Positions 2,966-42,933 of a DNA stretch of 55,143 nt are shown in pieces. The stretch lies in contig JACRCT010000256.1 in the NCBI GenBank assembly GCA_016218885.1, forward strand, positions 1-55,143, given 5' to 3'. This DNA comes from Deltaproteobacteria bacterium. Its GTDB lineage: Bacteria > Myxococcota > Myxococcia > Myxococcales > UBA5297. Below the pieces are notes generated by a model. That model searched no databases. It was not told the DNA's origin and worked only from the letters and a program-made list of their open reading frames with translations. Position numbers and translations under genes: made by a program. How positions within the stretch are numbered: the first letter of the stretch is position 1; every line of letters begins with the position of its first letter.

Positions 2966-3038
2966 CCTGGCGAGGCAGTGAAGGGGCCGGAGCCGCCCCG
3001 TAGGCCGGGTGCTGCTCAGTTGGGTGCGCACCGCGGAA

Positions 3039-3452
3039 CTACTCGTGCCCGGGGCCCTCATCCACCTGTCGAGCCAGGCGCTCCAGCTCCCGCGCCAGCC
3101 CCGCCTTGTCCATCCGCCGCTCAGCGATGGCGATCATCGCCTCGTAGAGCGCTTCCTCGGGATCGACCACCCGGTAGCCGTTGATCCGGAGGAACACCAG
3201 GGCGGCGCCGAGCCCGGTCCGCTTGTTCCCGTCGAGGAAGGGCTGGTTCTCCGCGACGTGGAAGGCGTAGGCCGCCGCCATGGCGAAGATCGACTCGTGG
3301 ACGAACTGACCGCCGAAGGTGGCCCTCGGCATGCCGAGGGCCGACTCCAGCAAGCCCTGGGAGCGGATGCCGAGGGTGCCACCGAACGCCTCGATCTGAC
3401 GCTCGTGCAGCTCCAGCACCTCCTCGAGCTCGAGGAAGTCCGGCTCGGTCAC
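3039..3452 (-). CDS. doc: Doc (death-on-curing) / Fic-fold toxin
   Basis: 137 aa. Doc-type Fic motif region AENQPFLDGNKRTG. Note Gln (CAG, plus coordinates 3243-3245) where the family consensus has His. 4-nt overlap with the upstream antitoxin gene. Confidence 0.8.
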   Translation of the reverse strand: MTEPDFLELEEVLELHERQIEAFGGTLGIRSQGLLESALGMPRATFGGQFVHESIFAMAAAYAFHVAENQPFLDGNKRTGLGAALVFLRINGYRVVDPEEALYEAMIAIAERRMDKAGLARELERLARQVDEGPGHE

Positions 3453-3673
3453 TTGGCGAGCTTCCGGAAGGTCCCGGCGTGGTCGGCCATGACCTCGTCG
3501 ATGGCGCTCCTGACGCGCGCCTTCCGGCCCTTCCGGACCGGCGCGATGATGAGCCGCTCCCCATCGGTCGTCATGTCGAGCTCGGTGTCCTTGGTGAGGT
3601 CGAGCAGCTCCAGGATGGGCTTCTCGATGACGATGCCGAGGCTGTTTCCGATGGCCGAGAGCTTCTTGCGCAT
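3449..3673 (-). CDS. AbrB/MazE/SpoVT-type antitoxin
   Basis: ATG at 3673 preceded by GGAG. MRKKLSAIGNSLGIVIEKPILELLDL is a swapped-hairpin AbrB/MazE-like N-terminus. Stop overlaps the doc start (3449-3452). Confidence 0.75.
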   Translation of the reverse strand: MRKKLSAIGNSLGIVIEKPILELLDLTKDTELDMTTDGERLIIAPVRKGRKARVRSAIDEVMADHAGTFRKLAK

Positions 3674-3756
3674 GGCTGGCTCCGTTCGAACTAACGTATA
3701 ACGAACCAGCCCGATGGGCGCAAGCAAGCGGCGCCGAGTCTCCAGCCCTGAAGGGC

Positions 3757-4347
3757 CTACTTGCTTCCCAACACCAGCCCTGAAGGCCGCCTGGTGTGGC
3801 TCGTCACGATGTAGTCGCCTCTCGCCTCATCGAAGACCGAGTGGATGAATGAAGGGTAGTCGTTGCCGGCCCGCCGGAACGCGCGCTCCAATTCCACCAA
3901 CGGCACTGCCAGCAGAGCCTTCTTGCGGTGCTGGTCTGACGCGACGTAGAGACCAACCAGGCGACCACCGCTGCTGGACAGGTACACCGCGAGGATGTGG
4001 CTGTGAATTGCCTGATTGCAGACGAACCTCAGAGGCAAGCGCTCCTGGGCGCCCCGCTTGAAGTCGAACAACTCCTCCAATCGATGGTTGTTCCACACGG
4101 TGACCCGCTTGCCATTAGATGGGTACGCGGTCGCGCGCAGGCGCATGTCGCTGGTCTCGATGGAGATCTTGTTTGAGTCGATGAGCTTGCGAATGGAGAA
4201 CAGGCCCAGGACCACGGCCTTTTCGACTGCCACATTGGTTGCACCCGCTGTCGGAAGACTGCTTCGCCGTGCGCGAGCAAGGCGGTCGGCATAGCGAAGC
4301 AGATCGTCTTTCCAGAAGCGCGACTCCCAAAGCATTGGGGACCTCAC
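3757..4347 (-). CDS. hypothetical protein (orphan, lower G+C)
   Basis: 196-aa ORF with globular-looking, non-low-complexity sequence. No motif recognised. Spot counts on 60-nt lines gave about 55-63% G+C, visibly below the flanks. Confidence 0.5.
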   Translation of the reverse strand: MRSPMLWESRFWKDDLLRYADRLARARRSSLPTAGATNVAVEKAVVLGLFSIRKLIDSNKISIETSDMRLRATAYPSNGKRVTVWNNHRLEELFDFKRGAQERLPLRFVCNQAIHSHILAVYLSSSGGRLVGLYVASDQHRKKALLAVPLVELERAFRRAGNDYPSFIHSVFDEARGDYIVTSHTRRPSGLVLGSK

Positions 4348-4378
4348 CTGTGTTCGAGCTGTCGGGACGAGAAGTGGC

Positions 4379-5119
4379 CTACGTGGCCGGGAACTGCTCC
4401 AACTCGCGCTGAAGATCCCGATAGAGGTCCAGGATCCAAGCCGGCCCTCGAGGCCCTGGCGGGGGACCCCGCCTCAGGTCCGTCGGCGCGATGACGACCG
4501 TGAAGGCGTCCTTCCCGACCGTGGCCGCAAGCCAGAACAGCTCCTCGATGGCCTCGTCGCCGATCGCGAGGCAGCCAACGCTCACGTCCTTGCCATGGAT
4601 GAAGATGTCGCCCCCGAGGCGCTGGCGACCATCTCTGGCAGCTTGGGCCCGGTCCACCGCGTTGGGGTAGTCGATCCTCAGCGACAGGTGGTAGGCGCTG
4701 TTCGGGTTGAGCTGGTCGATGCGATAGACGCCCTCGGGCACCTGGCGGTCGCCTTCACGGAGCTTGGGCCCGGCGCCGCCGCTGGCCGCGAGCACCGCCC
4801 AGGAGCGGACCTGCACTCGCCGCCCCGCCGCATCCTGGCCATAGAGGTCCAGGCGCTTCGCGTCCTTGATGGCTACGAGCCAAAGGCGGTTCGCCGGCAT
4901 GGCCACGCCAGCCGCCGTGAGCGCGGCGCGCATCCGACTGCCCGCGGTCTGATCCACCGTGGAGGCGGCGTCCACCACGTTACGTCGGCCCGTCGCCCGC
5001 TGGACCCAAGGCACCCATATGTTGCGCCCGTGGGCGTAGAACAGCCAGCACAGGAGGCCGACCAGCAGCGCGGCCGAAGCGGCAAGCGCGATCCTTCGGG
5101 GGTGGCGCTCTTCCTTCAT
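4379..5119 (-). CDS. L,D-transpeptidase (YkuD-fold) family protein
   Basis: Catalytic motif IFIHGKDVSVGCLAIGD (H-G...S-x-G-C). N-terminal TM/signal segment RRIALAASAALLVGLLCWLF. Start taken at ATG 5119; the track ORF extends to 5185. Confidence 0.75.
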   Translation of the reverse strand: MKEERHPRRIALAASAALLVGLLCWLFYAHGRNIWVPWVQRATGRRNVVDAASTVDQTAGSRMRAALTAAGVAMPANRLWLVAIKDAKRLDLYGQDAAGRRVQVRSWAVLAASGGAGPKLREGDRQVPEGVYRIDQLNPNSAYHLSLRIDYPNAVDRAQAARDGRQRLGGDIFIHGKDVSVGCLAIGDEAIEELFWLAATVGKDAFTVVIAPTDLRRGPPPGPRGPAWILDLYRDLQRELEQFPAT

Positions 5120-5248: not shown

Positions 5249-5454
5249 TGCGTCAACGCTGGAGAAATGCCGGAGCCGTCCTGTAAGCCGGGGACCGCTT
5301 CACCGTCCGTGCGTGTCCACCTGGCGCAGGGCGGCTCCGGTCATTTCAGGTAGTTGGCGGCTGGCTTGGCCGCCCCTGGCAGTCTCAGTTCAGAAGTTTC
5401 GGCCAGCCATAGACCAGAGATAGGGCAGGTGCCTGCAAGTCAAGGACAGGCCAG

Positions 5455-6492
5455 TCACCGCGCGACCACGTCGCGACCTTCTCGGAGCTCCGCCGTGACC
5501 TCCCTCAGATCAAATCGAGCTGACTCGGCTGTGAAGAACCGGAGGCTCTGGGCGGGCTCGCAGACCTTGGTAGCAGCCGACAACACCCTTCCAAGGAGAC
5601 GCTGGCCTCGCCACACCTGGGAAGTGAACTTCGGATCTCCGATGAACACGAAGGGCTCGACTCGAGGCTCGTCCTTCAGGTCAGGAGTCTGCGCGGGGAT
5701 CAATCCAAGCCCACGCTTCTGGTCGATCAGGCGGTTGATGTTCCGAACCAGGTTCGCTCGCTCGCCCGGCGCCTGGAGCGCGCGCGTCCAGAGCGCGGCG
5801 TACCCGCCGACCTGAATGGGCGTCCCGTAGACGCCTTGCTCGTCGCTCCCGTGCTTGGCCTCCATGAGTGCCAGGTCGCCGTCGGGCGTGACGCCGATGA
5901 AGTCGACCCCGCCGCCGCGCGCCTTCTCGAGGCGCCTCTTGCGCCGCCGGAGCGCCGGATCCTCGGTCGCCTCGGAGCTGATCCGCTGCTGGACCTCCTT
6001 CAGCCACACTTTGTCATCGCCAGTCAGCTCCTCGAGCTCGGCTTCGCGGTCGACCGCGATCCATGGAAGGGGTTGCCCCAATGTCGCCAGACGAGCCAGC
6101 CAGCTCTGCCAGCCTCCCTCCTTGTGCCACTGGCGTTCCTTGACCTTGATGGCGCCCAGGAACACGTCCCACTTCAGGACCTTGGCCTCGATCTCGCTGG
6201 CACGGAACGTCCCGTAGACCCCCAGCCGGGTCGCCGGCTCCTGGTCCATGTAGCTGGCGTCGGCCTTGGCCTCCAGCCTGTCGTCGCTCAAGTACTTGAG
6301 CTCGAGGACCTTGGTCAGCCCCGCATAGATGGACACGATGTTGCCGCGTCGAAGCTGCGTGTCGAGCGTGACCCGTGGGTGGTGGTTCACTGACAGGACG
6401 CCTGGAGCGGCGAGGAACCGCCGCAGGACTTCGTGCCCCGCGATCAACCCGAGGAACTTCTCACCCAGCGCACGGTCATATTTGAGTGTCAC
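5455..6492 (-). CDS. PD-(D/E)xK-fold nuclease-like protein (hypothetical)
   Basis: 345 aa. Candidate nuclease core GGGVDFIGVTPDGDLALMEAKHG (D...D-x(n)-E-x-K). Last gene of the 8916-5455 minus-strand operon. Confidence 0.55.
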   Translation of the reverse strand: MTLKYDRALGEKFLGLIAGHEVLRRFLAAPGVLSVNHHPRVTLDTQLRRGNIVSIYAGLTKVLELKYLSDDRLEAKADASYMDQEPATRLGVYGTFRASEIEAKVLKWDVFLGAIKVKERQWHKEGGWQSWLARLATLGQPLPWIAVDREAELEELTGDDKVWLKEVQQRISSEATEDPALRRRKRRLEKARGGGVDFIGVTPDGDLALMEAKHGSDEQGVYGTPIQVGGYAALWTRALQAPGERANLVRNINRLIDQKRGLGLIPAQTPDLKDEPRVEPFVFIGDPKFTSQVWRGQRLLGRVLSAATKVCEPAQSLRFFTAESARFDLREVTAELREGRDVVAR

Positions 6493-6516
6493 TTGGTCTC
6501 TCCCCGAGCCATGCCG

Positions 6517-7761
6517 TCAAACGTCCCACCAGGAACCATCTTGTCTGGTCTCTACCCACGGAAGAGTCGCAGCGTACTTTCCTGGATCGCCCGTGTGGAT
6601 CGGAATCACCCGTACCGGCCGTACCGCGTCCACCAGACGCCGCAGGTCCGTCACATAGGCGTGCCCCGACACGTGGTGCACCTCGAGCGGCACGCCGTGG
6701 CGCGCCAGGACCTGCTGGAGCCGCTGCTCCGCCGGTCCCTCCAGGTACCCCCGCCACATAGACCAGACGGCCAGCGCCCCTGGCAAAGCCCCGGCCTGCT
6801 CCAGTTCCCGTGCCATGGAGGGTCGCTGCATGAGCACCAACTCGCCCGCCCTCGCCGCCAGCTCCTCCGGGAAGACCCGATGCGGATGCACTCGGCGGAC
6901 CCGGCCGAACTCCTTGGCCTCCTTCACCTGGATGCGCTCCCTGCGTCGGCAGTAGACCTCAAGACCATCGACCTCAGGCACGGGAACGCCCGGCGCGCCG
7001 GCGGCGGCCGCCAGGGTGGCCGTGTAGAGGTCCACTACCAGGGTCCGCCCGGCCTCTCGCGCCGCCTCGTAGACCGTCCGCAGCCGGTCCAGGTTCTGCG
7101 AGGACCAGCTGGCCAGCACCAGCCCAGGCCATTCGCGGAATCGCCGGGCGAGCGTGCCGCGCAGGTCGGCCTCGCTCGGCCCCTCGCCCTCGCGGCCGTC
7201 AGCGATCTGGGTCCCCTCCATGAGCAGGGCGTGGACGTCCCGCGGCGGGTCGGCCAGGAGGCGTGCCCAAGGGTCCGAGTCGTTGCCGTGCGCCCGGAAG
7301 TCTCCCGTGTAGAAGAGCCGCCGTCCTTCAGCCTCGACCAGGAGCGCGAAAGCGTCGAGCGCGCTGTGCTCCACCTGATAGGGCGTGATCCGGAAAGGTC
7401 CAACCTCGAACGACTCTCGGTCGCCTAGGGTCCAGGTCGGCTCCGGGAGCGGTGGGCGCCCGGTGAAGAACTCGGCTTCCCGGAGGATGCGCGCGGCCTT
7501 GGCGCCGATTCCCATCGGCAGGCCCGGTCGGGCGGTCGGGATCAGGCCACAGTGGTCCCCGTGCAGGTGCGTGACGAGGACGCCGAGCAGCGACGGGTCC
7601 TCTCCGCGCAGCCCCGCGATGTTCGGGAGCGGGTCCTCCCCCTCCTCCGCGTCGAGCGGCAGGCCGAGGTCGAGCAAGATTCGCTGCCCTCCGGACTCGA
7701 GCTCGACGCAGGTGCCGCCCACCTGGCCGGCGCCGCGGTGGATGCATGCGCGCAGCGTCAC
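6517..7761 (-). CDS. MBL-fold metallo-hydrolase, beta-CASP / RNase J-like
   Basis: 414 aa. HxHxDH motif VTHLHGDHCG, downstream FYTGDFR and LLMEGT, C-terminal VHHVSGHA...IPIHTG. GTG start overlaps the upstream stop (GTGA, 7758-7761). Confidence 0.8.
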   Translation of the reverse strand: MTLRACIHRGAGQVGGTCVELESGGQRILLDLGLPLDAEEGEDPLPNIAGLRGEDPSLLGVLVTHLHGDHCGLIPTARPGLPMGIGAKAARILREAEFFTGRPPLPEPTWTLGDRESFEVGPFRITPYQVEHSALDAFALLVEAEGRRLFYTGDFRAHGNDSDPWARLLADPPRDVHALLMEGTQIADGREGEGPSEADLRGTLARRFREWPGLVLASWSSQNLDRLRTVYEAAREAGRTLVVDLYTATLAAAAGAPGVPVPEVDGLEVYCRRRERIQVKEAKEFGRVRRVHPHRVFPEELAARAGELVLMQRPSMARELEQAGALPGALAVWSMWRGYLEGPAEQRLQQVLARHGVPLEVHHVSGHAYVTDLRRLVDAVRPVRVIPIHTGDPGKYAATLPWVETRQDGSWWDV

Positions 7762-8033
7762 TCGTCCCTCGGTCGCGGAGTTGGTTGCAGGGGGAGCACC
7801 CTTCCGCCCGCTTGCTCTTCAGGAGCAGGGGATACCCCCGGAGCGACCCCGCCGCGCAGGCGGAGCTGGAGCGCGCGGGGGCGAAGCTGTCCCTGGACCT
7901 TGCGGAGATAGGCGCGCAGCTTGGCAGCCACCACATACTCCTCGGCCTGGTTGAGCTGCGCGCAACGCTTCACCTGCGCCCGGTATAGCCGCATGGTGAG
8001 GCGCAGTCGCGCTCGAAGCTGGTCCAGGGTCAC
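7758..8033 (-). CDS. small hypothetical protein (helical N-half)
   Basis: 91-aa ORF with a GTG start. GTGA overlaps at both ends, which argues for real translation. The C-half is low complexity. Confidence 0.35.
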   Translation of the reverse strand: MTLDQLRARLRLTMRLYRAQVKRCAQLNQAEEYVVAAKLRAYLRKVQGQLRPRALQLRLRGGVAPGVSPAPEEQAGGRVLPLQPTPRPRDE

Positions 8034-8209
8034 GCCCGCCCCCGGCTGCTCGGCGGCAATGGCTGGAGCTCGACCGTGAGGAGCAGCGCGCTGTCGGTTC
8101 GGGTCGCGCTCGCGATCACCCAGATCCGCCCGTCCTGCTCGCCCAGCACGTCGCCGACCTCGGGCACCGTCGCCGTCTCCCCGGGCTGGGCGACCGGCTT
8201 GCCGTCCAC
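8030..8209 (-). CDS. possible small protein, start uncertain
   Basis: High third-position G+C in this frame between 8236 and 8030. The only in-frame start after the upstream stop is GTG at 8209. No Shine-Dalgarno sequence seen. Confidence 0.25.
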   Translation of the reverse strand: MDGKPVAQPGETATVPEVGDVLGEQDGRIWVIASATRTDSALLLTVELQPLPPSSRGRA

Positions 8210-8235
8210 GAGCGGTATCGTGACCAGGTAGCTGT

Positions 8236-8916
8236 TCAGCTCACCCAGGGTCCGGCCCCCCTCACGACATCGGGATGATGGATCTGCAGCCAGGTCATGC
8301 GGTACGCGAAGATTGCCATCCCGTCGGCCTGGGCGCGCGGATAGGCGGTCCAGGCGAAGCGCAGCATCGCATGGCTCACCTCCTCGAGGTGGCGCTGATT
8401 GCCTCCACCTTCCTGCGCCGCCGTGAGGAACCGCTGGCGACTCTCCTCCCCCCGCGCCCCGCCCCGCAGCATCTGCCGGCGCCACGCCTCGGCCTGATCG
8501 CGCGAGACCCCCGCGATGATGCCCAGGCAGCGGGCGACCTGGGCGGCGTAGATGGCGAAACCCATGGTCTCGACGAGCGAGTCGTCCACCAGCGGGTGAA
8601 GGGACGGCACTTGGCGGCTACGCCTGCGCTGCAGGTACTCGGTGGCCAGCCCGAGCTCCACGGGTGCCGGGCGGTAGAGCGCCAACGCCGCCGCAAGTTC
8701 GGTCAGGTCTCGGGGCGAAACCTCCTCCACCCATCTGGCCGCATAGGCGCTGAGGAACGGGATGCTCGCCGCCGAGCCGGACGAGATTCCCGAGAAGACT
8801 TCGGGCTCACCGGTGGGCAGGCGGCCCAGGTCGAGGTGGGCCGCCATGGCCGCCTGTTCCAGCCGGCCGTTCATCTCAGCGATAGGGGTGTCGTGCACGG
8901 CCCCCGTTCTCCCCAT
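8236..8916 (-). CDS. DnaE (Pol III alpha) fingers-domain-like fragment, degenerate
   Basis: 226 aa. Collinear with E. coli DnaE as I recall it: ALYRPAPV vs ALFRPGP, GFAIYAAQVARCLGIIAG vs GIILYQEQVMQIAQVLSG, QAEAWRRQM vs ADMLRRAMGKK, AIFAYRMTWLQIHHPDV vs [21 protein letters not shown]. No PHP or palm domain present. Confidence 0.55.
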   Translation of the reverse strand: MGRTGAVHDTPIAEMNGRLEQAAMAAHLDLGRLPTGEPEVFSGISSGSAASIPFLSAYAARWVEEVSPRDLTELAAALALYRPAPVELGLATEYLQRRRSRQVPSLHPLVDDSLVETMGFAIYAAQVARCLGIIAGVSRDQAEAWRRQMLRGGARGEESRQRFLTAAQEGGGNQRHLEEVSHAMLRFAWTAYPRAQADGMAIFAYRMTWLQIHHPDVVRGAGPWVS

Positions 8917-9000
8917 CGAACGGACACAGCCGCGTGCGCCTGCCAGCCAGCCTTGTCCGTCGTCTCGCTAGCCTACATCCACCCACACTGGAGGCTGGCC

Positions 9001-9501
9001 ATGCTGATGACCGATTCGAGGGGCAGGACGTACCGGTGGGACGACCGCCTCACCGAGGCGCTCCGAGAGGTTGAGCGGCAGCTCGCCGAGCGCGAAGGCC
9101 GGCGACCGAGGCGGGATGGGCTCCTCCTCATCGACACGCGGGCACACCCGGACCTTGCTGCCGCCAAGGAGCGCGCGTTCGACGAGGCGGCCGAGCGCTA
9201 CCGGAGCCGGCCACCTCTCCAGGTCAAGACCGGCGACTGGGTGCGGATCGGCGGCTATCGCTTCCGCATCGGCAATGTGAGCGAGAAGAGCGGCCTCGTC
9301 GAGACCGAGCGGGTCGGGCGCGACGGGGCCGTCGTCTCGTCGGTGCCGGCGGACGGGGCCGGACTGGTGTCCGACCCGAGCACGGAGCCCGAGCCGGCAG
9401 ACGGGCTGCGGCCGCCCTACGACATCAAGGAGGCCCACACTCGGGCGCGCTTCTTCCTGAAGGCCCACGAGCGGGCGCTCGGGGACCGCTGGATCGACTG
9501 A
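9001..9501 (+). CDS. hypothetical protein
   Basis: ATG 9001 preceded by GGAGG. 166 aa, the C-terminal part of track ORF 8275..9501. Divergent from the 8916 operon. No motif recognised. Confidence 0.5.
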   Translation: MLMTDSRGRTYRWDDRLTEALREVERQLAEREGRRPRRDGLLLIDTRAHPDLAAAKERAFDEAAERYRSRPPLQVKTGDWVRIGGYRFRIGNVSEKSGLVETERVGRDGAVVSSVPADGAGLVSDPSTEPEPADGLRPPYDIKEAHTRARFFLKAHERALGDRWID

Positions 9502-9961: not shown

Positions 9962-10211
9962 CCGCTGGGAAGCTGCGCCCTGGCCCCCGCGATCCGGGCT
10001 CCCAGCTTGAGCGGGTGGTCCCCTTTCAGTTGATACGGCATCACCTGGAACAGGCAGTGGTCGTTGGCTGCCTGAAGGGCCTGGCCGCTCGCAAGGACGG
10101 CGCTTGGCCGGCCACCTGCCACTACCAGCGCCGGCGGCCCGCCTGATCGGGGCCACGCTACGACTCTTGTCGACTCTAGTCTGGTCTTGTTGGCAGGGGT
10201 TTGCTCAGATA

Positions 10212-10231
10212 CCCTGCACCGTTGTGCAGGG
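10212..10231. promoter_or_regulatory. 8-bp-arm palindrome overlapping the RBS of the HTH gene
   Basis: ccctgcac-cgtt-gtgcaggg read directly. Outer arms ttgct (10201-05) / agcaa (10232-36). The right arm contains the GGGAG 9-13 nt upstream of ATG 10242. Confidence 0.5.
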
Positions 10232-10241
10232 AGCAAGATCG

Positions 10242-10445
10242 ATGACAGCCGAGCCATGGGTGTCCGTTGCAGGAGTTGCCAAGCACCTCGGCGTTGCCAA
10301 GGACTCTGTCTATCGCTGGATTGAGTCGCGCCACCTCCCGGCGCACAAGATCGGCCGCCTTTGGAAATTCAAACTCACCGAGGTTGACGAGTGGGTCCGC
10401 ACCGGGGGCGCCGACACGCTCGACGAGAAGGGGCGAGCTCAGTGA
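10242..10445 (+). CDS. excisionase-family (MerR-like winged) HTH DNA-binding protein
   Basis: 67 aa. WVSVAGVAKHLGVAKDSVYRWIESRHLPAHKIGRLWKFKLTEVDEWV is the classic excisionase/AlpA-type HTH signature. Confidence 0.8.
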   Translation: MTAEPWVSVAGVAKHLGVAKDSVYRWIESRHLPAHKIGRLWKFKLTEVDEWVRTGGADTLDEKGRAQ

Positions 10446-10571: not shown

Positions 10572-11567
10572 ATGGCTCGTGCTGACCTGTTGCTGGATAT
10601 TGTTCGGGCTGGAGCCGAGGGACACCAGGAGCTGTTTCGCAAGACGCTGGAGGCGATGATTGCCGAAGAGAGAGGCAAGCAACACAACCTACTCGCCGAC
10701 CAACTCGCAGCTCACCTTCGGATCAACGGAAGCACCGCACGCCCCACGCGCACCCTGACCGAGCCGATCGGAGATCGGTCCGCGTTTGCCGAGGTGCGAC
10801 CGCGCCGCGACTTGGCGAGCCTCGTACTGCCGACAGTGGTTCGAGAGGCATGCCTCGAACTGGTGGAAGAACACCACCGAGCCGACCTTCTTCGCTCGCA
10901 CGGTCTTGAACCGCGCCACCGGGTTCTCCTGAGTGGCCCCCCCGGCAACGGGAAGACGACGCTCGCCGAAGCGGTTGCGTTCGAATTGGCGGTACCCCTA
11001 TTTGTCGTCCGCTACGAAAGCATTATCGGGAGCTATCTCGGCGAAACCGCGGTGCGGCTGGCCAAGCTCTTTGCCCAGGTACGAACGGAGCGTTGCGTAC
11101 TCTTCTTTGACGAGTTCGATGTAGTCGGCAAGGAGCGGGGCGACGTCCATGAGACTGGCGAGATCAAGCGAGTCGTCAGCTCCCTGCTCTTGCAGGTGGA
11201 CCAGTTGCCTTCTCACGTCGTCGTGATTGCCGCAACGAACCACAGCGAGCTTCTGGACCGTGCAGCTTGGCGCCGGTTTCAGGTGCGGCTGCCGCTACCG
11301 ATACCGACCAAGGAGCAGCGCGTCGAGTGGCTTCGCCAGTTCGAGTCTCGAACGGGCCTCTCGCTTGGACACTCACACGCGAAGCTCGCGAAGTCCCTTG
11401 GCTCCATCAGCTTCGCCGAACTTGAGCTCTTCGCGCTCGACGTTCAGCGCCGCTACGTTCTCGCGCTCCCCGAAGGGGATGTGCTGGCCATCGTGAATCG
11501 CCGACTCCAGCAGTGGAATGCGCGGGTGAAGCCGAAGGCCCCGACCTCGAGGAGGCGCAATGGCTGA
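10572..11567 (+). CDS. ietA: AAA+ ATPase, IetA-like
   Basis: AGGAGGA RBS. Walker A SGPPGNGKTTLA, Walker B VLFFDEFD, sensor-1 VIAATNH. 8-nt overlap with the following S8 peptidase gene. Confidence 0.75.
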   Translation: MARADLLLDIVRAGAEGHQELFRKTLEAMIAEERGKQHNLLADQLAAHLRINGSTARPTRTLTEPIGDRSAFAEVRPRRDLASLVLPTVVREACLELVEEHHRADLLRSHGLEPRHRVLLSGPPGNGKTTLAEAVAFELAVPLFVVRYESIIGSYLGETAVRLAKLFAQVRTERCVLFFDEFDVVGKERGDVHETGEIKRVVSSLLLQVDQLPSHVVVIAATNHSELLDRAAWRRFQVRLPLPIPTKEQRVEWLRQFESRTGLSLGHSHAKLAKSLGSISFAELELFALDVQRRYVLALPEGDVLAIVNRRLQQWNARVKPKAPTSRRRNG

Positions 11568-14142
11568 ACGACCGCTCCTGCTTCTGCCCGAGGCCATTGC
11601 CGCAAGCCGGGCCAACAAAGGTGGCGGTGGTGGAGGTCCGGGGAAGGTCGGCCCAGGTCGCCAACAGGAGCGTCTTGGACCCCGCCTAAACGAACTTGAG
11701 AATGCGCTGGAGAGGAGGCGCGTTCAGCTCCAAGCGGCAGCCTCGGGCATTGTTCCTGAAGATGTGCTGGTTCTGGAGACCGCAGGAACAGTGGAGGAGT
11801 TCGTCAAGGCGGTGAGCCGCATCGAGGGGTTCGAGTTCCTCGTGGAGTACGACGAGCAGGACATTCCGCCCGACGAGGACTTCTTCACCGACAAGAAGGG
11901 CGCACACATTGCGTACACCGGGCGCGTTTACATGGTGTTCGCCAACCAGGACGCCTTTCGGCAACTGCAGCGTCTGTGGAAGCTCTTTCAGAACGGTGAG
12001 GATTTCGAGCGTGGTCTCACAAAGTGGCGCGATGTCTTCGCGCTCCTTCGTGACATCCGCACGTGGAGCGTGAAGGACCGCCTCGAGGAAACTGGCGTCC
12101 TGACGGACTGGGCCGAGCGCGTTCAGTTCGGTGCCGAGAACGTGCACTGCGAGATCGAACTCTGGTTCCGCTCGAACGACCAGCGACGCCAAGAGGCATC
12201 GCAGGTGGTTCGCGCGCGCGTGCAGGAACTCGGCGGAGCAGTTCTCGCCGAAGGCATTGTTCCCGGCATCCACTATCATGGACTCGCCGTGCAGCTCCCG
12301 ATTCAAGCCGTGCAACAAGTCCTGAACACGCACACGCGTGACCAGGTCCAACTCCTCCAGAGCGAGCAAGTTCAGTTCTTCCGCGCTGCGGGGCAGATGG
12401 CGGTTCGAACCCCGGGGGATCGAGTCCCATCAACGACCGCATTCACCGGCCCTCGACCTGCCGGCCCGGCGCGCGTCGCGCTGCTTGATGGCCTTCCACT
12501 CCAGAACCATGCGGCGCTGACGAACCGCCTGATCGTCGATGACCCCGACAATTTCGAAGCCAACTACCGTGCCGACGCTCGCGCCCACGGAACAGGCATG
12601 GCCTCGCTCATCGTCTGGGGCGACCTCAACGCCTCTGACCCGCTGCCGATTCCACAGCCGCTGTATGTGCGGCCCATCATGCAACCGGTCTTCCCTCCGT
12701 CGTGGGCGAATCAAGAGCCATTCGAGTGCGTGCCCGAGGGGACGCTCGTCGTCGATCTCGTTCACCGGTCGGTTCGTCGGCTGTACGAAGCGGAGGGGAA
12801 TGCCGCTCCGGCGGCGCCCGAGATCAGCCTCGTAAACTTCTCAATCGGGATCCGCGACCGGCCATTCTCTAACACGCTGAGCCCTCTCGCGCGGCTACTC
12901 GACTGGTTGTCATGGAACCATAGGGTCCTGTTCCTCGTGAGCGCCGGCAACCATCTGCACGAAGTCGACACTGGCAAGCCGTGGTCCGAAGTGCAGGCTC
13001 TTGCGCCCACAGAACTTTCGGCCGTGATCCTTCAGTCGTTGGCAGCGGACACCCGGAATCGTCGAGCACTCTCACCCGCTGAATCGATGAATGCCCTCAC
13101 CGTGGGCGCCCTCCACGCCGATTCCGACACCGCGAGTCACGCGACAACCCGACTAGACCCCATGCTCGTGGGTTACCCGAGTCCGCTCAATGCTCACGGC
13201 CTCGGCTACCGTAGGTCAGTCAAACCCGACCTCCTCGTGCCCGGAGGGCGTCTCCAATTCGATCGCCCTATTCAGGATCAGCAGACGCGGCTTCGACCCG
13301 TTCGCGTCGAAACGTCGCCTGGCGTCAAGGTGGCGGCGCCCGGCCCCCTCGCCGGCGACGTCACACACACGGTCAAGTCCAGAGGCACCAGCAACGCAAC
13401 GGCGCGCCTAAGCCGCATGGGCGCGTTCTTGGCCCCCGTCCTCACCGAGATCAGGCAAGGCGCGGGCGGCAACGCGCTGGCGGTGGTTCCTGATGCGGTA
13501 GTCCTAAAGGCGCTGCTCGCCCATGGTGCCCGCTGGGGCGACCTGGGCCCTGCGCTCCACGGCCACTTTGAGACGATTGAGAACGCCGACAAGCGCACGG
13601 AGCAGGTCACGCGGCTGTTGGGCTTCGGGCGACTTGAGGTCGACGATGTTGCTGAGTGCTCGCCCACTCGTGTCACCGGGATCGGAGGCGGAACGCTGGC
13701 CGCCGACGGTGGTGCTGAGCACCGCTTCCCGCTGCCACCGTCCCTGAGCGGCAAGCGCGGTTGGCGACGGCTCACCGTTACGCTTGCCTGGTTCACACCG
13801 GTGAATCCACTCAGCCACAAGTGGCGCAAGGCGCAACTCTGGTTCGAAACGCCGAGGTCGAAGCTCAAGGTGAACCGCGTCGGACCCGACTGGCAGACAG
13901 CGCAAAGAGGAACGCTCCAGCATGAAGCATTCGAGGGCGAGGCGGCTGCAGCGTTCGTGGACGGAGATGATATCGTGGTTCGCGTGAGTTGCCGCGAAGA
14001 TGCTCCGGGCCTCGAGGGCTCGGTGCCTTATGCAGTCGCGGTTTCGCTCGAAGTCGCCCAGGACATTGGCGTCGACATCTACACGGAGGTCCGCGAGCGA
14101 GTGAGTCAGCGCCTGCAAGTTCAAGCTGGCGCCGCGCCCTAG
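11560..14142 (+). CDS. ietS: S8 (subtilisin-like) serine peptidase, IetS-like
   Basis: 860 aa. Catalytic triad contexts VALLDGLP (Asp), AHGTGMASL (His), VSAGN (oxyanion Asn), SRGTSNATA (Ser). Confidence 0.8.
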   Translation: MAERPLLLLPEAIAASRANKGGGGGGPGKVGPGRQQERLGPRLNELENALERRRVQLQAAASGIVPEDVLVLETAGTVEEFVKAVSRIEGFEFLVEYDEQDIPPDEDFFTDKKGAHIAYTGRVYMVFANQDAFRQLQRLWKLFQNGEDFERGLTKWRDVFALLRDIRTWSVKDRLEETGVLTDWAERVQFGAENVHCEIELWFRSNDQRRQEASQVVRARVQELGGAVLAEGIVPGIHYHGLAVQLPIQAVQQVLNTHTRDQVQLLQSEQVQFFRAAGQMAVRTPGDRVPSTTAFTGPRPAGPARVALLDGLPLQNHAALTNRLIVDDPDNFEANYRADARAHGTGMASLIVWGDLNASDPLPIPQPLYVRPIMQPVFPPSWANQEPFECVPEGTLVVDLVHRSVRRLYEAEGNAAPAAPEISLVNFSIGIRDRPFSNTLSPLARLLDWLSWNHRVLFLVSAGNHLHEVDTGKPWSEVQALAPTELSAVILQSLAADTRNRRALSPAESMNALTVGALHADSDTASHATTRLDPMLVGYPSPLNAHGLGYRRSVKPDLLVPGGRLQFDRPIQDQQTRLRPVRVETSPGVKVAAPGPLAGDVTHTVKSRGTSNATARLSRMGAFLAPVLTEIRQGAGGNALAVVPDAVVLKALLAHGARWGDLGPALHGHFETIENADKRTEQVTRLLGFGRLEVDDVAECSPTRVTGIGGGTLAADGGAEHRFPLPPSLSGKRGWRRLTVTLAWFTPVNPLSHKWRKAQLWFETPRSKLKVNRVGPDWQTAQRGTLQHEAFEGEAAAAFVDGDDIVVRVSCREDAPGLEGSVPYAVAVSLEVAQDIGVDIYTEVRERVSQRLQVQAGAAP

Positions 14143-20535: not shown

Positions 20536-21771
20536 CTACTCATCGGCACTCCGCATCTTGAGTGCGCCTTCGTCAAACCAGACCTCGATTGGGCTTGTCT
20601 TGTATCGAATCGACTGGGTCTTGAAGACCCTAGAGCTATCGGCGACAAAGGATAGCGGGAATGGGCGCCCACCCCCTCCATTGGGGAACACAACGACATT
20701 GGTCCCTTTGGTTCGCTGCGCGGACGCAAAAATGATGCCCTGAACACCCGGCGAACGCACATGCGCAAGGTACTCCGCCAAGTACTGGGTGATCAGGTAG
20801 TCGCTCTCTCCGTCCGGATGAACCGGTTCGGCCACCAATTTGTGCAACGCCCTCAGGAAGGCCCTTCTCTGGAATAGACGGGAGGCACCCCGCTGGAAGT
20901 AGCTCGCCTCCTTTTCGCCCCGGTATGCCTTGTCCAGGCGACGGAAATCCAGAACTCGAAGGGGCGCCGCAGTTGCGAACTTGCCGACAACCACCATCCG
21001 ACCAAGAGACGGCCGAAGCTCAGCGATGCACGTCTCGCTTTCCAGTGCGCCGTAGAACACCGAGATGCCCTCAGGATTCATCCTGCCGGCTCTCGCCTTC
21101 TGAGGCGGCGGGGCGGCAAGTTCTCTCGCCGGTCGCGAGAGAATCGCCCTCAGAGCGCCAGTCGAATCCGAAGCCCGTGCTCGAAAGAGTGCAGTCCCCA
21201 CGGGCACAGTCCAAACAACACTGATGGGCGCCGACGCACCGCCCGCCCGGCGTCGTCCCGGGGGGCACCTGAGTTGATCCAATTCTTCGAATAGCGCGCC
21301 GAAGAACGCCCTGGCTCGGTCGCTGAAGAAGCGACGCCGATACTTCAGTTCGCCCTTGATGCGCTCCCAGGTCTTGAAGTGGGCGGACAGATCCGTGGGG
21401 CTATTCTCGTACGTGGCATCCCTACTAACAAAAGGCTCACTGCCATCGCGCGGATCTGCCGGATCAGCCTCCTCGAGAGCTTGCAGAAGCGCGTCTTCAC
21501 ATTCCAAGTACTGTCCCAGAATCTCCTGCACCACCCAGGACAGGTCATCTCCAAGAGGCTCGCCATCAATAGCATTGCCCGCCTGAATGAAGTGCTCTTC
21601 AATGATGGGATACATTAGGCCCGCAAGATCCTGAATAGAGATCGCGGGATTCGTTGTGAGGCCGCAAAGAACGCATACCTCGGGAGCACCCCGAGCCGAA
21701 ATGCGAGCTTTCAACGCGTGATCTTGGATGCAGTCGCAGCAGACGTTGTCGTCCACCGAGTAGCTCTTCAT
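20536..21771 (-). CDS. RES-domain protein with Cys-rich N-terminal domain (HEPN/RES-NTD1-like)
   Basis: 411 aa. N-terminus VCCDCIQDHALKARI....CVLCG. RES core FRARAS ... GRMNPEGISVFYGALESETCIAELRP ... GIIFASAQ (candidate R, E, S). One 60-nt line counted at about 50% G+C. Confidence 0.75.
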   Translation of the reverse strand: MKSYSVDDNVCCDCIQDHALKARISARGAPEVCVLCGLTTNPAISIQDLAGLMYPIIEEHFIQAGNAIDGEPLGDDLSWVVQEILGQYLECEDALLQALEEADPADPRDGSEPFVSRDATYENSPTDLSAHFKTWERIKGELKYRRRFFSDRARAFFGALFEELDQLRCPPGRRRAGGASAPISVVWTVPVGTALFRARASDSTGALRAILSRPARELAAPPPQKARAGRMNPEGISVFYGALESETCIAELRPSLGRMVVVGKFATAAPLRVLDFRRLDKAYRGEKEASYFQRGASRLFQRRAFLRALHKLVAEPVHPDGESDYLITQYLAEYLAHVRSPGVQGIIFASAQRTKGTNVVVFPNGGGGRPFPLSFVADSSRVFKTQSIRYKTSPIEVWFDEGALKMRSADE

Positions 21772-31944: not shown

Positions 31945-32039
31945 GACCGCGCCGCGGACTGCCTCCCTGTCGGAAGCGGGTGCCATAGTTTCCGCGTCTC
32001 TTGGCGGAAGCTCCAGCGAAAGCAGCTGAAGGAGGAGAG

Positions 32040-33107
32040 ATGTTCAGACACCTGCTGCGGGAGATGGAAGACCTCTCCGGCACGACTAGCATCACCATCC
32101 CGGTCGCCGCCGACGAGCGGGGCTATGTCGACAAGGAATGCCCAGTCTCGGAATGCAGGTACCAGTTCAAGGTGATGGGAGAAGACTGGGGAGCGCTCTT
32201 CCACGATGAGGCCGTCTTCTGCCCGATGTGCGGGCATGAAGCGCCGGCGACCCAGTTGTGGACGACTGAGCAGGTCGAACAGGGCCGAGCACGGGCGATG
32301 GCCTACCTGGAGGCTCGGGTTGACTCAGCACTGAGGCGTGGCGCCGCCGAGTTCAACCGAACTCATAGGTCCGATGGGTTCCTTCAGGTGTCAATGCACG
32401 TGTCGGGAGCGCCGCGCCGCGCGGTTATCCTTCCCTTGCCGGCCGCCGAGGTGCTTGAGCAGCGTGTTGCGTGCGAGAAGTGCAGCGCGCGCTACGCAGT
32501 AATCGGAGCTGCCTTCTTCTGTCCATGCTGTGGGAACAACTCAGTGGAGCGGATGTTTGAAGCGTCGCTCCAAAGAGTGCGAGCGAGGGTTGAAAACCTC
32601 GACACGATTCGATCCGCACTTCGCGAGGCAAGCGGTCCGGACGACGCAGAGCTGACGTGCAGGTCTCTTCTCGAAGATGGGCTCCAGCACTGTGTGACGG
32701 CATTCCAGCACTACGCTGAGCGGCGGTATCGCGCGATCCCCGGCACCGCCACGCCAAGGATGAACGCGTTTCAGCGCCTCGAAGAAGGAGATGCGCTCTG
32801 GCGCGCGGCGGTTGGCGCGGGCTACATCGAGTGGATTTCTCCCGACAGCCAGTCTCGCCTCCGGATCTTGTTCGAACGGCGGCACCTGCTGGCTCATCGC
32901 GATGGCATCGTCGACGACAAGTACATGGCCAAGTCAGGCGACCACGTGTACCGGACCGGCCAGCGCATCGTCGTTACAGTACGTGACGTGAGCGAACTCG
33001 TGGACATCATCCAGCGCTTGGCCGACGCCATCCGTGCCGCCACAGAGCCGAAGGACGGGGCGCCGACCATGCTGCCTGGGGCAGAACACGGAAGGGACGT
33101 TCTGTGA
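32040..33107 (+). CDS. double zinc-ribbon protein with C-terminal Rx4H (HEPN-like) domain, paralog A
   Basis: ATG 32040 after GAAGGAGGAGAG. Zinc-ribbon motifs CPVSEC..(x27)..CPMCG and CEKC..(x14)..CPCCG. C-terminal FERRHLLAHRDG, with the Rx4H motif at nt 32880-32897. Confidence 0.7.
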   Translation: MFRHLLREMEDLSGTTSITIPVAADERGYVDKECPVSECRYQFKVMGEDWGALFHDEAVFCPMCGHEAPATQLWTTEQVEQGRARAMAYLEARVDSALRRGAAEFNRTHRSDGFLQVSMHVSGAPRRAVILPLPAAEVLEQRVACEKCSARYAVIGAAFFCPCCGNNSVERMFEASLQRVRARVENLDTIRSALREASGPDDAELTCRSLLEDGLQHCVTAFQHYAERRYRAIPGTATPRMNAFQRLEEGDALWRAAVGAGYIEWISPDSQSRLRILFERRHLLAHRDGIVDDKYMAKSGDHVYRTGQRIVVTVRDVSELVDIIQRLADAIRAATEPKDGAPTMLPGAEHGRDVL

Positions 33108-41313: not shown

Positions 41314-42933
41314 TTACGTCGATCCCGTCGCGCCCAGGGTCTGTGACCAGGCGCCGGTCACACGGGGATACCGGTACGCCAGGGGCCGGGTCGCGCCTGC
41401 GATGATGAGTCGCTCCTTGGCCCGGGTGGCGCCGACGTACGCAACGCGGTTCTCGGCCTCGGCCCCGCCATGGCGCTGGTCCAGGTGCTCCATGTAGGTA
41501 GCCCTGGTCATCTCCGGCACCAGCACCACGGTGTCGGCTTCCCGCCCCTTCGACCCGTGGATGGTGGTCAGGCGCACCTTGGGCTCCACCAGGCTGCCAT
41601 GGCGGGCATGGATCGCCTCGAGGTAGCGCCTGGTCGCGCCGTCCAGCCGTTTCAGCATGCCCAGCGGTCCCTCGGCCGCCGCCACCGACAGCAGGGTGCC
41701 GCCCTGCAGCAGGTTTTTGATGACGCTGGGCGCCAGCTCCCCGTCGAGCTGCGCCGCCCTGGCCTTCACGCCACGAGGGAGCAGGCTCGCACCGTTGCTC
41801 GGGATGAACTCCAGCATCGCCTGGAGGTCGTCGGCCTGGACGTTCCACCCGTAGGCCACCGCCCGGGCGGAGCGCACCGCGGCGAGAAGCTGCGGGCCCA
41901 GGGGGTTCGCGGCCCCGCCACCCTCCACCACGTAGGCCACGCCGGCCGCCTGCAGCTGCTCAGCGACGCCCTCCAGGAAGCAGCGGTTGCGCACCAGGAC
42001 GAACGTCGGGGAGGCCCCGTCGACCTGGCTCAGCGCGGCCTCGAGCGGCAGGTAGTCGACGGAACCGCCGACCTGTCGCGGCGTGTAGGTCTTCCTGATG
42101 CGGTTCTGGTTGCGGGCGACGAGCTGCATGGCCAGCGCGTGCACCGTGGCTGGGACCCGGTACGACTGCGCCAGGACCGTCGTCGGGTGAGCCCGGGACA
42201 GCGCCAGGAGCCAGCCGGGATCCGCACCCTGGAAGCCGTAGATGGCCTGGTCATCATCCCCCGCCACGTAGACCTGCCGGCAGTGTCCGAACCACGCCTG
42301 CACCGCCCGGACCTGCAAGGGGGAGAGGTCCTGCGCCTCGTCCACGAAGGCCACCTTCACGTCGGGCCGCAGGCCCCGGGCGAGCGCCTCCTCAAGCATG
42401 TCGTTGAAGTCGACCACCCGCTTGTCACGCTTGAACGAGACGTAGCGGCTGACGAAGCGGCGGAAGGAGCCGGCGACGACCCGCGCCGGAGCCCGCGCCA
42501 GCGTGGTCTCAACATCCAGCCCCCGGTTCCGCCCCCATTCGTAGGTGGCGCGGAGGAGGTCGTCCGTCGTCTGCCGGGGCGCCGAGCCGAGCGGGTCCTC
42601 CATGTTGGTCCAACCCACCGCGGTGAAGCGGTAGCCGTGGGCGCGACCGAACTCGCTCCAGTGCCGGCCGTCCAGGACCCGATCCGGAGCGAGGTTGAGG
42701 AGGCGGAACGCCGTGCCGTGAATTGTGCGGAGCCAGGGGAAGTCCTTCCCGTCGATGTCGAACCGCCGTCCCACCCTGGCGAGGACCTCTTCCCTAGCCG
42801 CCCGGGTGAAACTCACGAAAGCGACGTCCTCTGGGCTGGTGTCCCCGGACAGCTCGGACTCCAGGCGCTGGAGCAGCGCCGTGGTCTTCCCCGTGCCGGG
42901 GGGCCCCAGCAGGACCTCGAGGTTGGAGGTCAC
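41314..42933 (-). CDS. UvrD/Rep-like superfamily 1 helicase
   Basis: 539 aa. Walker A LLGPPGTGKTT, Walker B AFVDEAQDLSP, C-terminal TIHGSKGREADTVVL and VGATRAKERL. 4-nt overlap with prim-pol. Confidence 0.85.
   Translation of the reverse strand: MTSNLEVLLGPPGTGKTTALLQRLESELSGDTSPEDVAFVSFTRAAREEVLARVGRRFDIDGKDFPWLRTIHGTAFRLLNLAPDRVLDGRHWSEFGRAHGYRFTAVGWTNMEDPLGSAPRQTTDDLLRATYEWGRNRGLDVETTLARAPARVVAGSFRRFVSRYVSFKRDKRVVDFNDMLEEALARGLRPDVKVAFVDEAQDLSPLQVRAVQAWFGHCRQVYVAGDDDQAIYGFQGADPGWLLALSRAHPTTVLAQSYRVPATVHALAMQLVARNQNRIRKTYTPRQVGGSVDYLPLEAALSQVDGASPTFVLVRNRCFLEGVAEQLQAAGVAYVVEGGGAANPLGPQLLAAVRSARAVAYGWNVQADDLQAMLEFIPSNGASLLPRGVKARAAQLDGELAPSVIKNLLQGGTLLSVAAAEGPLGMLKRLDGATRRYLEAIHARHGSLVEPKVRLTTIHGSKGREADTVVLVPEMTRATYMEHLDQRHGGAEAENRVAYVGATRAKERLIIAGATRPLAYRYPRVTGAWSQTLGATGST

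Follow-up and report, generated by a model that had tools for sequence, protein, structure and literature searches.

Nucleases with a metallo-beta-lactamase (MBL) fold are established components of prokaryotic immunity. MBL-fold DNases serve as effectors of Avs, Hachiman (HamMAB) and other systems, in which they are zymogens defined by an adjacent trypsin-, caspase- or subtilisin-like protease (PMC12642450, PMC12799240, PMC13069673), and an effector role in defence has been proven for MBL-fold nucleases with a remote kinship to RNase J and ComEC (PMC12642450; PMC13069673). We analysed a 55,143-bp stretch of DNA, the whole of a contig from a metagenome-assembled 'Deltaproteobacteria bacterium' (hereafter the window), in which a minus-strand operon encodes an RNase J-like MBL of the beta-CASP type followed by a protein with the motifs of PD-(D/E)xK nucleases. 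The two genes recur together in many phyla. They probably constitute a mobile two-nuclease cassette with lineage-specific accessories, and its most likely role, which we hold with about even confidence, is defence against phages or other mobile DNA. Like the protease-activated effectors, this cassette contains an MBL-fold nuclease, but the adjacent gene encodes a nuclease-motif protein; the two groups are set apart here by their neighbours. The trypsin, caspase and S8 families were all absent from the listed neighbour families of the MBL loci. The S8 protease IetS is encoded 3.6 kb from the cassette as part of a separate, divergently transcribed IetAS system. It was considered as a protease that might activate the MBL and was rejected because the neighbour families listed for other loci include no protease.

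Other described proteins resemble one or the other half of the cassette. RNase J, a bacterial beta-CASP enzyme with 5'-to-3' exo- and endoribonuclease activity (PDB 5a0t, 7wnt, 3zq4), shares the MBL and beta-CASP core of the window protein, its HxHxDH motif and its motifs B and C, with a nearly identical HVSGHAY...P.H stretch. In contrast to RNase J, the window MBL is 414 amino acids (aa) long, lacks the C-terminal dimerisation domain, is accessory and mobile, and is paired with a PD-(D/E)xK-motif gene. The best solved match is EF2904 of Enterococcus faecalis (PDB 2az4), an uncharacterised beta-CASP protein of similar length (429 aa) from structural genomics. Defence nucleases of the PD-(D/E)xK type that stand alone and have variable sensor regions, such as Shedu and the type IV restriction enzymes Mrr and McrC-type, share with the partner an E..D..ExK core and a fast-evolving non-catalytic region, and there is a weak profile match to a Shedu structure; however, the partner has no significant PADLOC or Pfam match to them and is linked to an MBL nuclease. 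A comparable division of labour operates in the unhooking and resection of interstrand crosslinks in eukaryotes, where the PD-(D/E)xK endonuclease XPF-ERCC1 makes a 5'-phosphate end and the beta-CASP 5'-to-3' exonuclease SNM1A digests the strand. This likeness is one of homologous folds only, and the window MBL differs by its RNase J-type motifs and its accessory, mobile distribution.

The operon and its borders comprise the following features:

8916-8236, minus strand: gene 1, open reading frame (ORF) for a DnaE-fingers protein, 226 aa (220 aa if the start is at 8898)
8209-8030, minus strand: gene 2, small ORF, 59 aa
8033-7758, minus strand: gene 3, small and doubtful ORF, 91 aa (78 aa by another gene call)
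7761-6517, minus strand: gene 4, RNase J-like beta-CASP MBL, 414 aa
6492-5455, minus strand: gene 5, PD-(D/E)xK-motif partner, 345 aa
about 5347-5222, minus strand: two stem-loops 3' of the gene 5 stop, likely the 3' end of the transcription unit
8917-9000: divergent intergenic region of 84 nt between the operon and a plus-strand gene set

An earlier note on this DNA had reported the five ORFs at these coordinates, two GTGA overlaps and a 24-nt gap, all of which are present in the sequence. The overlaps join stop and start at 8030-8033 (genes 2/3) and 7758-7761 (genes 3/4), and the gap separates genes 4 and 5. The five genes, a putative single transcription unit, lie on a common strand with overlaps or short gaps, and hairpins stand 3' of gene 5. 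Gene calling on a second, independent assembly of the same DNA gave products of 220, 59, 78, 414 and 345 aa. The G+C content by codon position indicates minus-strand coding throughout 5455-8916 and plus-strand coding from about 9000, in accord with the gene calls. At the third position it reaches 0.83-0.95 in four of the five genes and is weaker, 0.75, in the 91-aa ORF. The start of the 59-aa ORF, which is internal to a longer ORF, was chosen because its third-position G+C is 0.95. Downstream of gene 5, the longer hairpin spans about 5347-5266 and a perfect 11-bp G+C hairpin, CCCTCTCCCCC-GCT-GGGGGAGAGGG, lies at about 5246-5222. This region (fold of -101.9 kcal/mol, z = -2.56) likely forms the 3' end of the transcription unit, and the consensus terminator scan did not call it because no T-run stands behind the stem-loops. 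Over the operon the consensus scan, which is weakly informative, detected no internal terminator-like or sigma-70 promoter-like sites. Neither did it find a sigma-70 consensus promoter in 8917-9000, where we assume that the operon promoter lies.

The product of gene 4 matches the Pfam families Lactamase_B_2 (4.9e-12) and RMMBL (1.8e-5), both above their cut-offs, and the NCBIfam RNase J family TIGR00649 (5e-17). Together with the HLHGDH (HxHxDH) motif, these matches bear out its first description as an RNase J/beta-CASP-like MBL. Motifs 1-4 of the beta-CASP MBL enzymes (D; HxHxDH; H; D) and motifs A, B and C are all present, and the HVSGHAY...P.H stretch agrees at every residue with motifs B and C of RNase J in the alignment. 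Residues D31, H65, H67, D69, H70, H132, D154, E182, H363, H367 and H389 are invariant in 26 homologues: the active-site motifs are intact and conserved. The best solved relatives by profile are 2az4 (1.3e-26) and RNase J. Nevertheless, the protein falls outside RNase J proper, scoring 61.5 bits against a cut-off of 400 for TIGR00649 and 34.2 against 820 for NF047419. The match is limited to positions 8-249 of the 546-position RNase J model, and the C-terminal domain of RNase J is lacking, so that a true orthologue was ruled out by score and length. An anti-CBASS/Pycsar phosphodiesterase was likewise discarded, the 24 bits obtained with NF041851 against a cut-off of 400 reflecting generic MBL similarity. 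The family of ligase-associated DNA damage response exonucleases is absent from the NCBIfam matches of the MBL at E <= 0.1. No ligase was seen in the annotated MBL neighbourhoods, which do not correspond to the Lhr-MPE-ligase-Exo type.

Gene 5 is predicted to encode a PD-(D/E)xK-type nuclease. Its product carries DGDLALMEAKHG, and the residues of the nuclease motif are E150, D197, E211-x-K213 and Q227. Across 19 relatives D197, E211 and K213 are invariant and E150 nearly so; the PD-(D/E)xK-like core noticed previously in this 345-aa protein is thus confirmed at the level of the motif, as is the membership of the other partner families in this superfamily. Gene 5 has no family match in Pfam, PADLOC, NCBIfam or PHROGs. 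It belongs to a partner family named SFA (see below), whose profile gives weak matches to solved PD-(D/E)xK proteins (ST1444, 0.015; Shedu, 0.13; NucS, 0.43). Models computed with AlphaFold2 for gene 5 (three sequences) and for a related partner, P0124 (ten sequences), reached predicted local distance difference test (pLDDT) scores of 52.7 and 35.3, respectively, too poor for a fold search. Around the motif, the low-pLDDT gene 5 model places its secondary-structure elements in an order that the PD-(D/E)xK fold would allow. A mixed alignment of 13 sequences was set aside, its catalytic core being misaligned. Among 5.8 billion proteins just two homologues of gene 5 were found, with 50-52% identity, both encoded directly downstream of a 414-aa MBL.

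ORFs were called and neighbours clustered in 178 fetched MBL loci, and five partner families (SFA, SFB, F1, F5 and F7) were defined by iterated searches with hidden Markov models (HMMs). A same-strand adjoining partner from these families was present in 90 of the 138 evaluable loci, in which the sequence continues for 900 nt or more beyond the MBL on its downstream side, and stood downstream of the MBL in 79 and upstream in 11. Six further small partner families occur among the remaining evaluable loci. Partner starts often overlap the MBL stop. The reverse search, starting from the partner, was consistent: all four homologues that we looked up (P0002, P0003, P0125 and P0132, the last two retrieved with the partner profile alone) lie directly downstream of an MBL. 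Profile-profile comparison with hhalign joins the partner families through a short core only, with probabilities of 89% for SFA-F1, 56% for SFA-SFB and 55% for SFB-F1 (97-98% for earlier sub-clusters), and the core consensus E..D..ExK..Q recurs in SFA, SFB and F1. In the co-occurrence check that the earlier note called for, the MBL and the PD-(D/E)xK-motif gene form a tight pair across many phyla. The five genes do not hold up as a conserved unit: the core is made of two genes, about 3% of loci have a DnaE-derived gene, and the 59-aa gene recurs twice outside the window. We also looked for a conserved third gene upstream of the MBL and rejected it: the upstream genes are often translationally coupled, yet mutually unrelated. 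The conserved unit is genes 4 and 5 only, and the set of genes 1, 2, 4 and 5 is that of one sister lineage, represented by locus L095, the only fetched locus that keeps this order.

The MBL has more than 890 homologous protein clusters, many of them 70-80% identical. In one-genome-per-species GTDB, at least 423 loci were found among 185,579 species genomes, and metagenomes gave at least 522 more matches. The distribution is patchy and extends over Myxococcota, Actinomycetota, Gemmatimonadota, Bacteroidota, Alphaproteobacteria, Kiritimatiellia, Dehalococcoidia, Desulfobacterota and others. Cultured carriers include Azospirillum rugosum, A. oleiclasticum, Blastococcus sp. CPCC 205250, Luedemannella flava, Rhizobium phaseoli (plasmid pRphaN671a) and Burkholderia sp. 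YI23, which makes the pair directly testable. The copies on RefSeq plasmids are labelled 'MBL fold metallo-hydrolase' and 'hypothetical protein'. Genes 1, 2, 4 and 5 have no match in PADLOC-DB 2.0.0 (2023) at E <= 0.1, and representatives of the SFA, SFB and F1 partners gave none either; the partner of locus L094 has weak PDC matches, 2.6e-4 or worse. Pfam, NCBIfam and PHROGs recognise only general MBL/RNase J and DnaE domains, and nothing in the partner or the small ORFs. No description of the pair was found in the literature. The statement that no named system has this composition thus holds for PADLOC-DB 2.0.0, none of whose models the pair matches. We consider the pair an unnamed nuclease-based module of the defence-island kind and a reasonable defence candidate.

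The two halves of the pair evolve very differently. An MBL 76% identical to that of the window is accompanied by a partner 52% identical to gene 5, and one of 54% identity by a partner of 30% identity. Beside some MBLs that are 73-80% identical to the window's, the partner comes from SFB instead of SFA. Outside its catalytic core the partner is hypervariable, and this part is swapped among cassettes that are nearly identical elsewhere. Genes involved in conflict typically show such a combination of a constant enzyme and a replaceable companion that evolves fast, and the pair may well belong among them.

Many of the pair neighbourhoods, though not all, are defence islands or mobile elements. 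The surroundings of the pair contain SIR2, UvrD with PDDEXK_1, GIY-YIG, SNF2-DUF3427 and HNH genes in L094; HNH_2, Mrr and SNase in the P0018 context; an MmeI/Eco57I-type (type IIG restriction-modification) enzyme, HNH_2, bpMoxR-VWA and RadC in L095; McrB, RmuC, an M78 peptidase and a kinase-helicase in L097; and an Eco57I-like methylase, GIY-YIG and TcmP on the Rhizobium phaseoli plasmid. In L001 (4872-8738) the pair stands behind a 755-aa ATPase (PDC-M26A, 4e-37) and a 527-aa protein, in a four-gene run with zero intergenic gaps; these two proteins were read as McrB-like and McrC-like from their motifs. A scan of the nearest neighbours (138 proteins, each at least 200 aa long) against PADLOC gave matches at E <= 1e-15 that include HmaA, DrmD, BrxH, GajB-like, WYL, Cas5/6 and several PDC models. 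Copies of the pair are carried by Rhizobium, Burkholderia and Ochrobactrum plasmids, some of them conjugative or mobilisable. In L178 (4724-6891), on a 3.1-Mb contig, the MBL and its partner stand by themselves as an insertion of two genes between hemB (ALAD) and mfd, which suggests that the pair moves as a minimal cassette. Viral presence is rare, with 2 of 2.9 million viral contigs and one weak match in phage genomes, and a phage origin of the pair was rejected on this near-absence. As a separate observation, four loci have a radical SAM gene no more than 10 kb from the pair, in two cases with a B12-binding domain (L001:17787-19226, where the gene adjoins a HicA gene; L078:1143-2828; L090:5183-5572; and the P0018 context).

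PD-(D/E)xK enzymes leave 5'-phosphate ends when they cut, and such ends are the preferred substrate of beta-CASP 5'-to-3' exonucleases of the RNase J/SNM1 type. From the motifs and the gene linkage we infer that the two proteins might act as a complex, that they would divide the labour, and that a defence phenotype would result. The variable region of the partner would recognise a target and the partner would make the first endonucleolytic cut, leaving a 5'-phosphate end. The RNase J-like MBL would then degrade the cut nucleic acid, DNA or RNA, from this end, as is suggested by the RNase J/SNM1 preference and by the conserved HxSGHA motif. In the clade of the window, a catalytically dead DnaE-derived protein and a protein of about 60 aa encoded upstream could contribute DNA or nucleotide binding, or act as sensor or regulator. 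If the pair is indeed a defence system, it would represent a widespread unnamed family with hundreds of species-level occurrences in at least 8 phyla, plasmid copies included. It would extend the MBL-fold immune effectors to a protease-independent form, and the association, an unusual one, of a conserved beta-CASP nuclease with a swappable, fast-evolving partner would provide a natural test of the exchange of specificity modules on a fixed effector.

Several points weigh against this interpretation. Only a minority of the 138 nearest neighbours match PADLOC models, a proportion that has no matched background rate. The L178 copy is flanked by housekeeping genes, and the L096 copy lies in a conjugative element. 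The PD-(D/E)xK assignment of the partner is made from motifs and weak profile matches (E 0.015-0.43), both AlphaFold2 models having failed. In the beta-CASP classification, an RMMBL domain with a histidine at motif C is typical of RNA-acting enzymes; the MBL, which has both, may thus act on RNA, and this fits less well with a mechanism of cutting DNA and then chewing it. Finally, the pair includes no methyltransferase or other self-protection gene that would explain the sparing of self.

The genes upstream of the pair belong to fewer loci. Gene 1 matches Pfam DNA_pol3_finger (6e-21, model positions 17-164 of 166), in agreement with its initial reading as DnaE-fingers-like, and aligns to DnaE models at positions 579-772 of 1146, with 54-79 bits against cut-offs of 434-1806. 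Among 1.84 billion representatives it has only itself above 35% identity, the next being full-length DnaEs at 35%. With its fingers alone, it fails to qualify as a DNA polymerase III alpha subunit. Truncated DnaE-derived genes stand beside the MBL in five non-redundant loci, the window included; the four others encode the following proteins, which we call mini-DnaEs:

L032, 9762-11111: mini-DnaE, 450 aa
L113 (L113/L115), 3351-4823, minus strand: mini-DnaE, 491 aa
L095, 7455-8543: mini-DnaE, 362 aa
L078, 7168-8004: mini-DnaE, 279 aa

These four proteins match DnaE at about 340-480 and 605-838, with an internal deletion common to all, and align mutually end to end at 27-36% identity without frameshifts. 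They therefore represent one mini-DnaE family and not independent wrecks. Every example seen adjoins an RNase J-like MBL, and we found no description of such proteins. Gene 1 aligns with the 362-aa protein in the same position of L095 (29% over 212 aa, E 5e-21) and also with those of L032, L113 and L078. As in DnaE and DnaE2, the fingers are present in gene 1, and in the mini-DnaEs the first part of the palm as well; unlike DnaE and DnaE2, they lack the PHP domain, the clamp-binding region, the OB fold and the latter half of the palm, which holds the third catalytic aspartate. Gene 1, which keeps the fingers only, is further truncated than the mini-DnaEs, and the L095 protein, as read from its sequence, has both palm aspartates replaced. 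Such a protein cannot act as a polymerase. We considered that gene 1 might be a recent pseudogene of the host dnaE and rejected this on its identity to any DnaE of at most 35%, its roughly 190 aligned residues without a frameshift, and its mini-DnaE kinship. About 97% of loci have no DnaE-related gene nearby; in L011 a full-length DnaE has its stop overlapping the MBL start.

In L095 the order mini-DnaE, 65-aa gene, MBL, partner is that of the window, with an MBL 69% identical and a partner from SFB. The 65-aa protein, encoded between the mini-DnaE and the MBL, is related to gene 2 (40% over 48 aa, E 1.7e-10), and a further relative of gene 2, of 61 aa, is encoded in L007 just upstream of the MBL. 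An HMM of these three relatives found no others in the 178 loci. For gene 3 there was no homologue in any fetched locus. Its sole family match is a chance-level one to ZorG (0.0065, PADLOC) through a low-complexity helical stretch, its position is occupied by a 146-nt gap in L095, and it is absent from L007. Of the two small proteins proposed at the outset, the 59-aa one is thus conserved in three loci, whereas the 91-aa one is without homologue, and gene 3 is a doubtful ORF.

These data bear on the possibility that functional partnership is confined to genes 4 and 5, with the other three ORFs, the DnaE fragment included, as decaying debris or as unrelated island genes placed upstream by chance. 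We regard this as improbable, though it deserves to be kept in view. The solitary position of gene 1 in sequence space, its reduction to the fingers, the weaker codon bias and lack of homologues of the 91-aa ORF, and the rarity of DnaE-related genes among the loci would all be expected of debris. However, L095 repeats the order mini-DnaE, small protein, MBL, partner despite another partner family, the mini-DnaEs of four loci share one internal deletion and are free of frameshifts, as befits a maintained family, and the 59-aa protein is conserved in three loci. The recurrence of DnaE-related genes beside the MBL, including the full-length DnaE overlapping its start in L011, could alternatively point to a DNA repair or recombination module, in which the partner would be a structure-specific endonuclease and the MBL a 5'-to-3' exonuclease for breaks or crosslinks, with the DnaE-derived protein linking them to translesion or repair synthesis. 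An ERCC4 domain in one partner-position gene and the copy adjoining mfd are consistent with such a role, and some beta-CASP enzymes (SNM1, Artemis, PSO2) are repair nucleases. Nevertheless, we consider it unlikely. The pair is found in very few species and in a patchy manner (at least 423 loci among 185,579 species) and is carried by plasmids, and the turnover of partners between near-identical MBLs would be unusual for housekeeping repair. Motifs B and C of the MBL are of the RNase J type and not of the SNM1 type, the ligase-associated exonuclease family gives no match at E <= 0.1, and no ligase, Ku or LexA-type context was seen in the neighbourhoods.

The mobility of the two-gene unit raises the question of whether it benefits the host at all. 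As a selfish function of mobile elements, it would destroy competing elements or host nucleic acids, or ensure post-segregational killing, and would not protect the host from phages. Copies carried by a conjugative element and by plasmids that are conjugative or mobilisable, the movement of the unit as a cassette and the HTH_17, PrimPol and UvrD helicase genes elsewhere on the contig would fit this explanation, to which we give little credence: both proteins keep nuclease active sites, neither is antitoxin-like, and many copies stand among bona fide anti-phage systems. It also shades into defence, since mobile elements carry many defence systems. Lastly, the MBL might be a paralogue of RNase J in RNA processing or decay, assisted by the partner as its cofactor and uninvolved in conflicts with mobile elements. 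Although the RNase J enzymes are its closest characterised relatives and it has the RMMBL domain and the motif C histidine, this is highly improbable in view of its 61.5 bits against 400, the missing C-terminal domain, its accessory, horizontally spread and plasmid-borne nature and its pairing with a fast-evolving nuclease-motif protein. Defence by a mobile two-nuclease cassette thus remains the interpretation that we favour. In its most extended form, which is speculative, the pair would found a new immune family made of a conserved RNase J-like shredder and interchangeable PD-(D/E)xK specificity modules. One subclade would be guarded by a dead mini-DnaE and an adaptor of about 60 aa, with the mini-DnaE as a decoy or sensor of phage factors directed against the replicative polymerase, or of aberrant replication intermediates, licensing the nucleases. 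If the pair is a defence system, the recurrent mini-DnaE would be, as far as we found, the first replicative-polymerase-derived domain in such a module.

The window contains further genes of defence and mobility, listed here with the small genes next to the operon:

3039-3727: Doc/antitoxin pair
9001-9498, plus strand: 166-aa gene without Pfam or PADLOC match
after 9498 and up to about 10100, plus strand: two small genes of 60 and 75 aa, between the 166-aa gene and the HTH_17 gene
10104-10445, plus strand: HTH_17 (excisionase-like) gene near IetA, with an HTH_17 match
10572-14142: IetA/IetS, followed by the BREX genes BrxHI, BrxD, PglZ and PglX
32001-33107, plus strand: PDC-M14A-like gene
41314-45140, minus strand: PrimPol-domain protein (736 aa) adjoining a UvrD-family helicase

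The operon had been placed between a toxin-antitoxin module and IetAS/BREX, and the Doc pair, IetAS and the BREX genes are located accordingly. Taken together, the HTH_17, PrimPol and UvrD helicase genes hint at an integrative mobile element that would make up much of the contig. The window has no Rfam match, and a search for transfer RNA genes found none. The G+C content drops from 0.77 to 0.66 at about 3000, which places the operon within an island of lower G+C. On the flanks of the cassette only short repeats of low identity occur. A 31-nt direct repeat (81% identity) occurs at 2986-3016 and 5269-5299, with related inverted arms at 2979-2998 and 5329-5348. Both repeats sit in the two intergenic regions on either side of the block of Doc toxin-antitoxin, 196-aa and YkuD-like genes; the first copy of the direct repeat falls at the G+C drop. 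This repeat pair could be the mark of a small insertion, an element resembling repetitive extragenic palindromes (REP-like), or chance. The 196-aa protein, unannotated and encoded downstream of the cassette (3757-4347, minus strand), has a homologue of 38% identity (E 2e-30) in L078 (497-1033), some 7 kb upstream of the MBL; besides the window, L078 is the one Myxococcota locus to encode a mini-DnaE. Inside BREX, between PglZ and PglX, a gene without PADLOC match (20536-21771, minus strand) encodes a 411-aa RES-domain protein (Pfam 3e-18).

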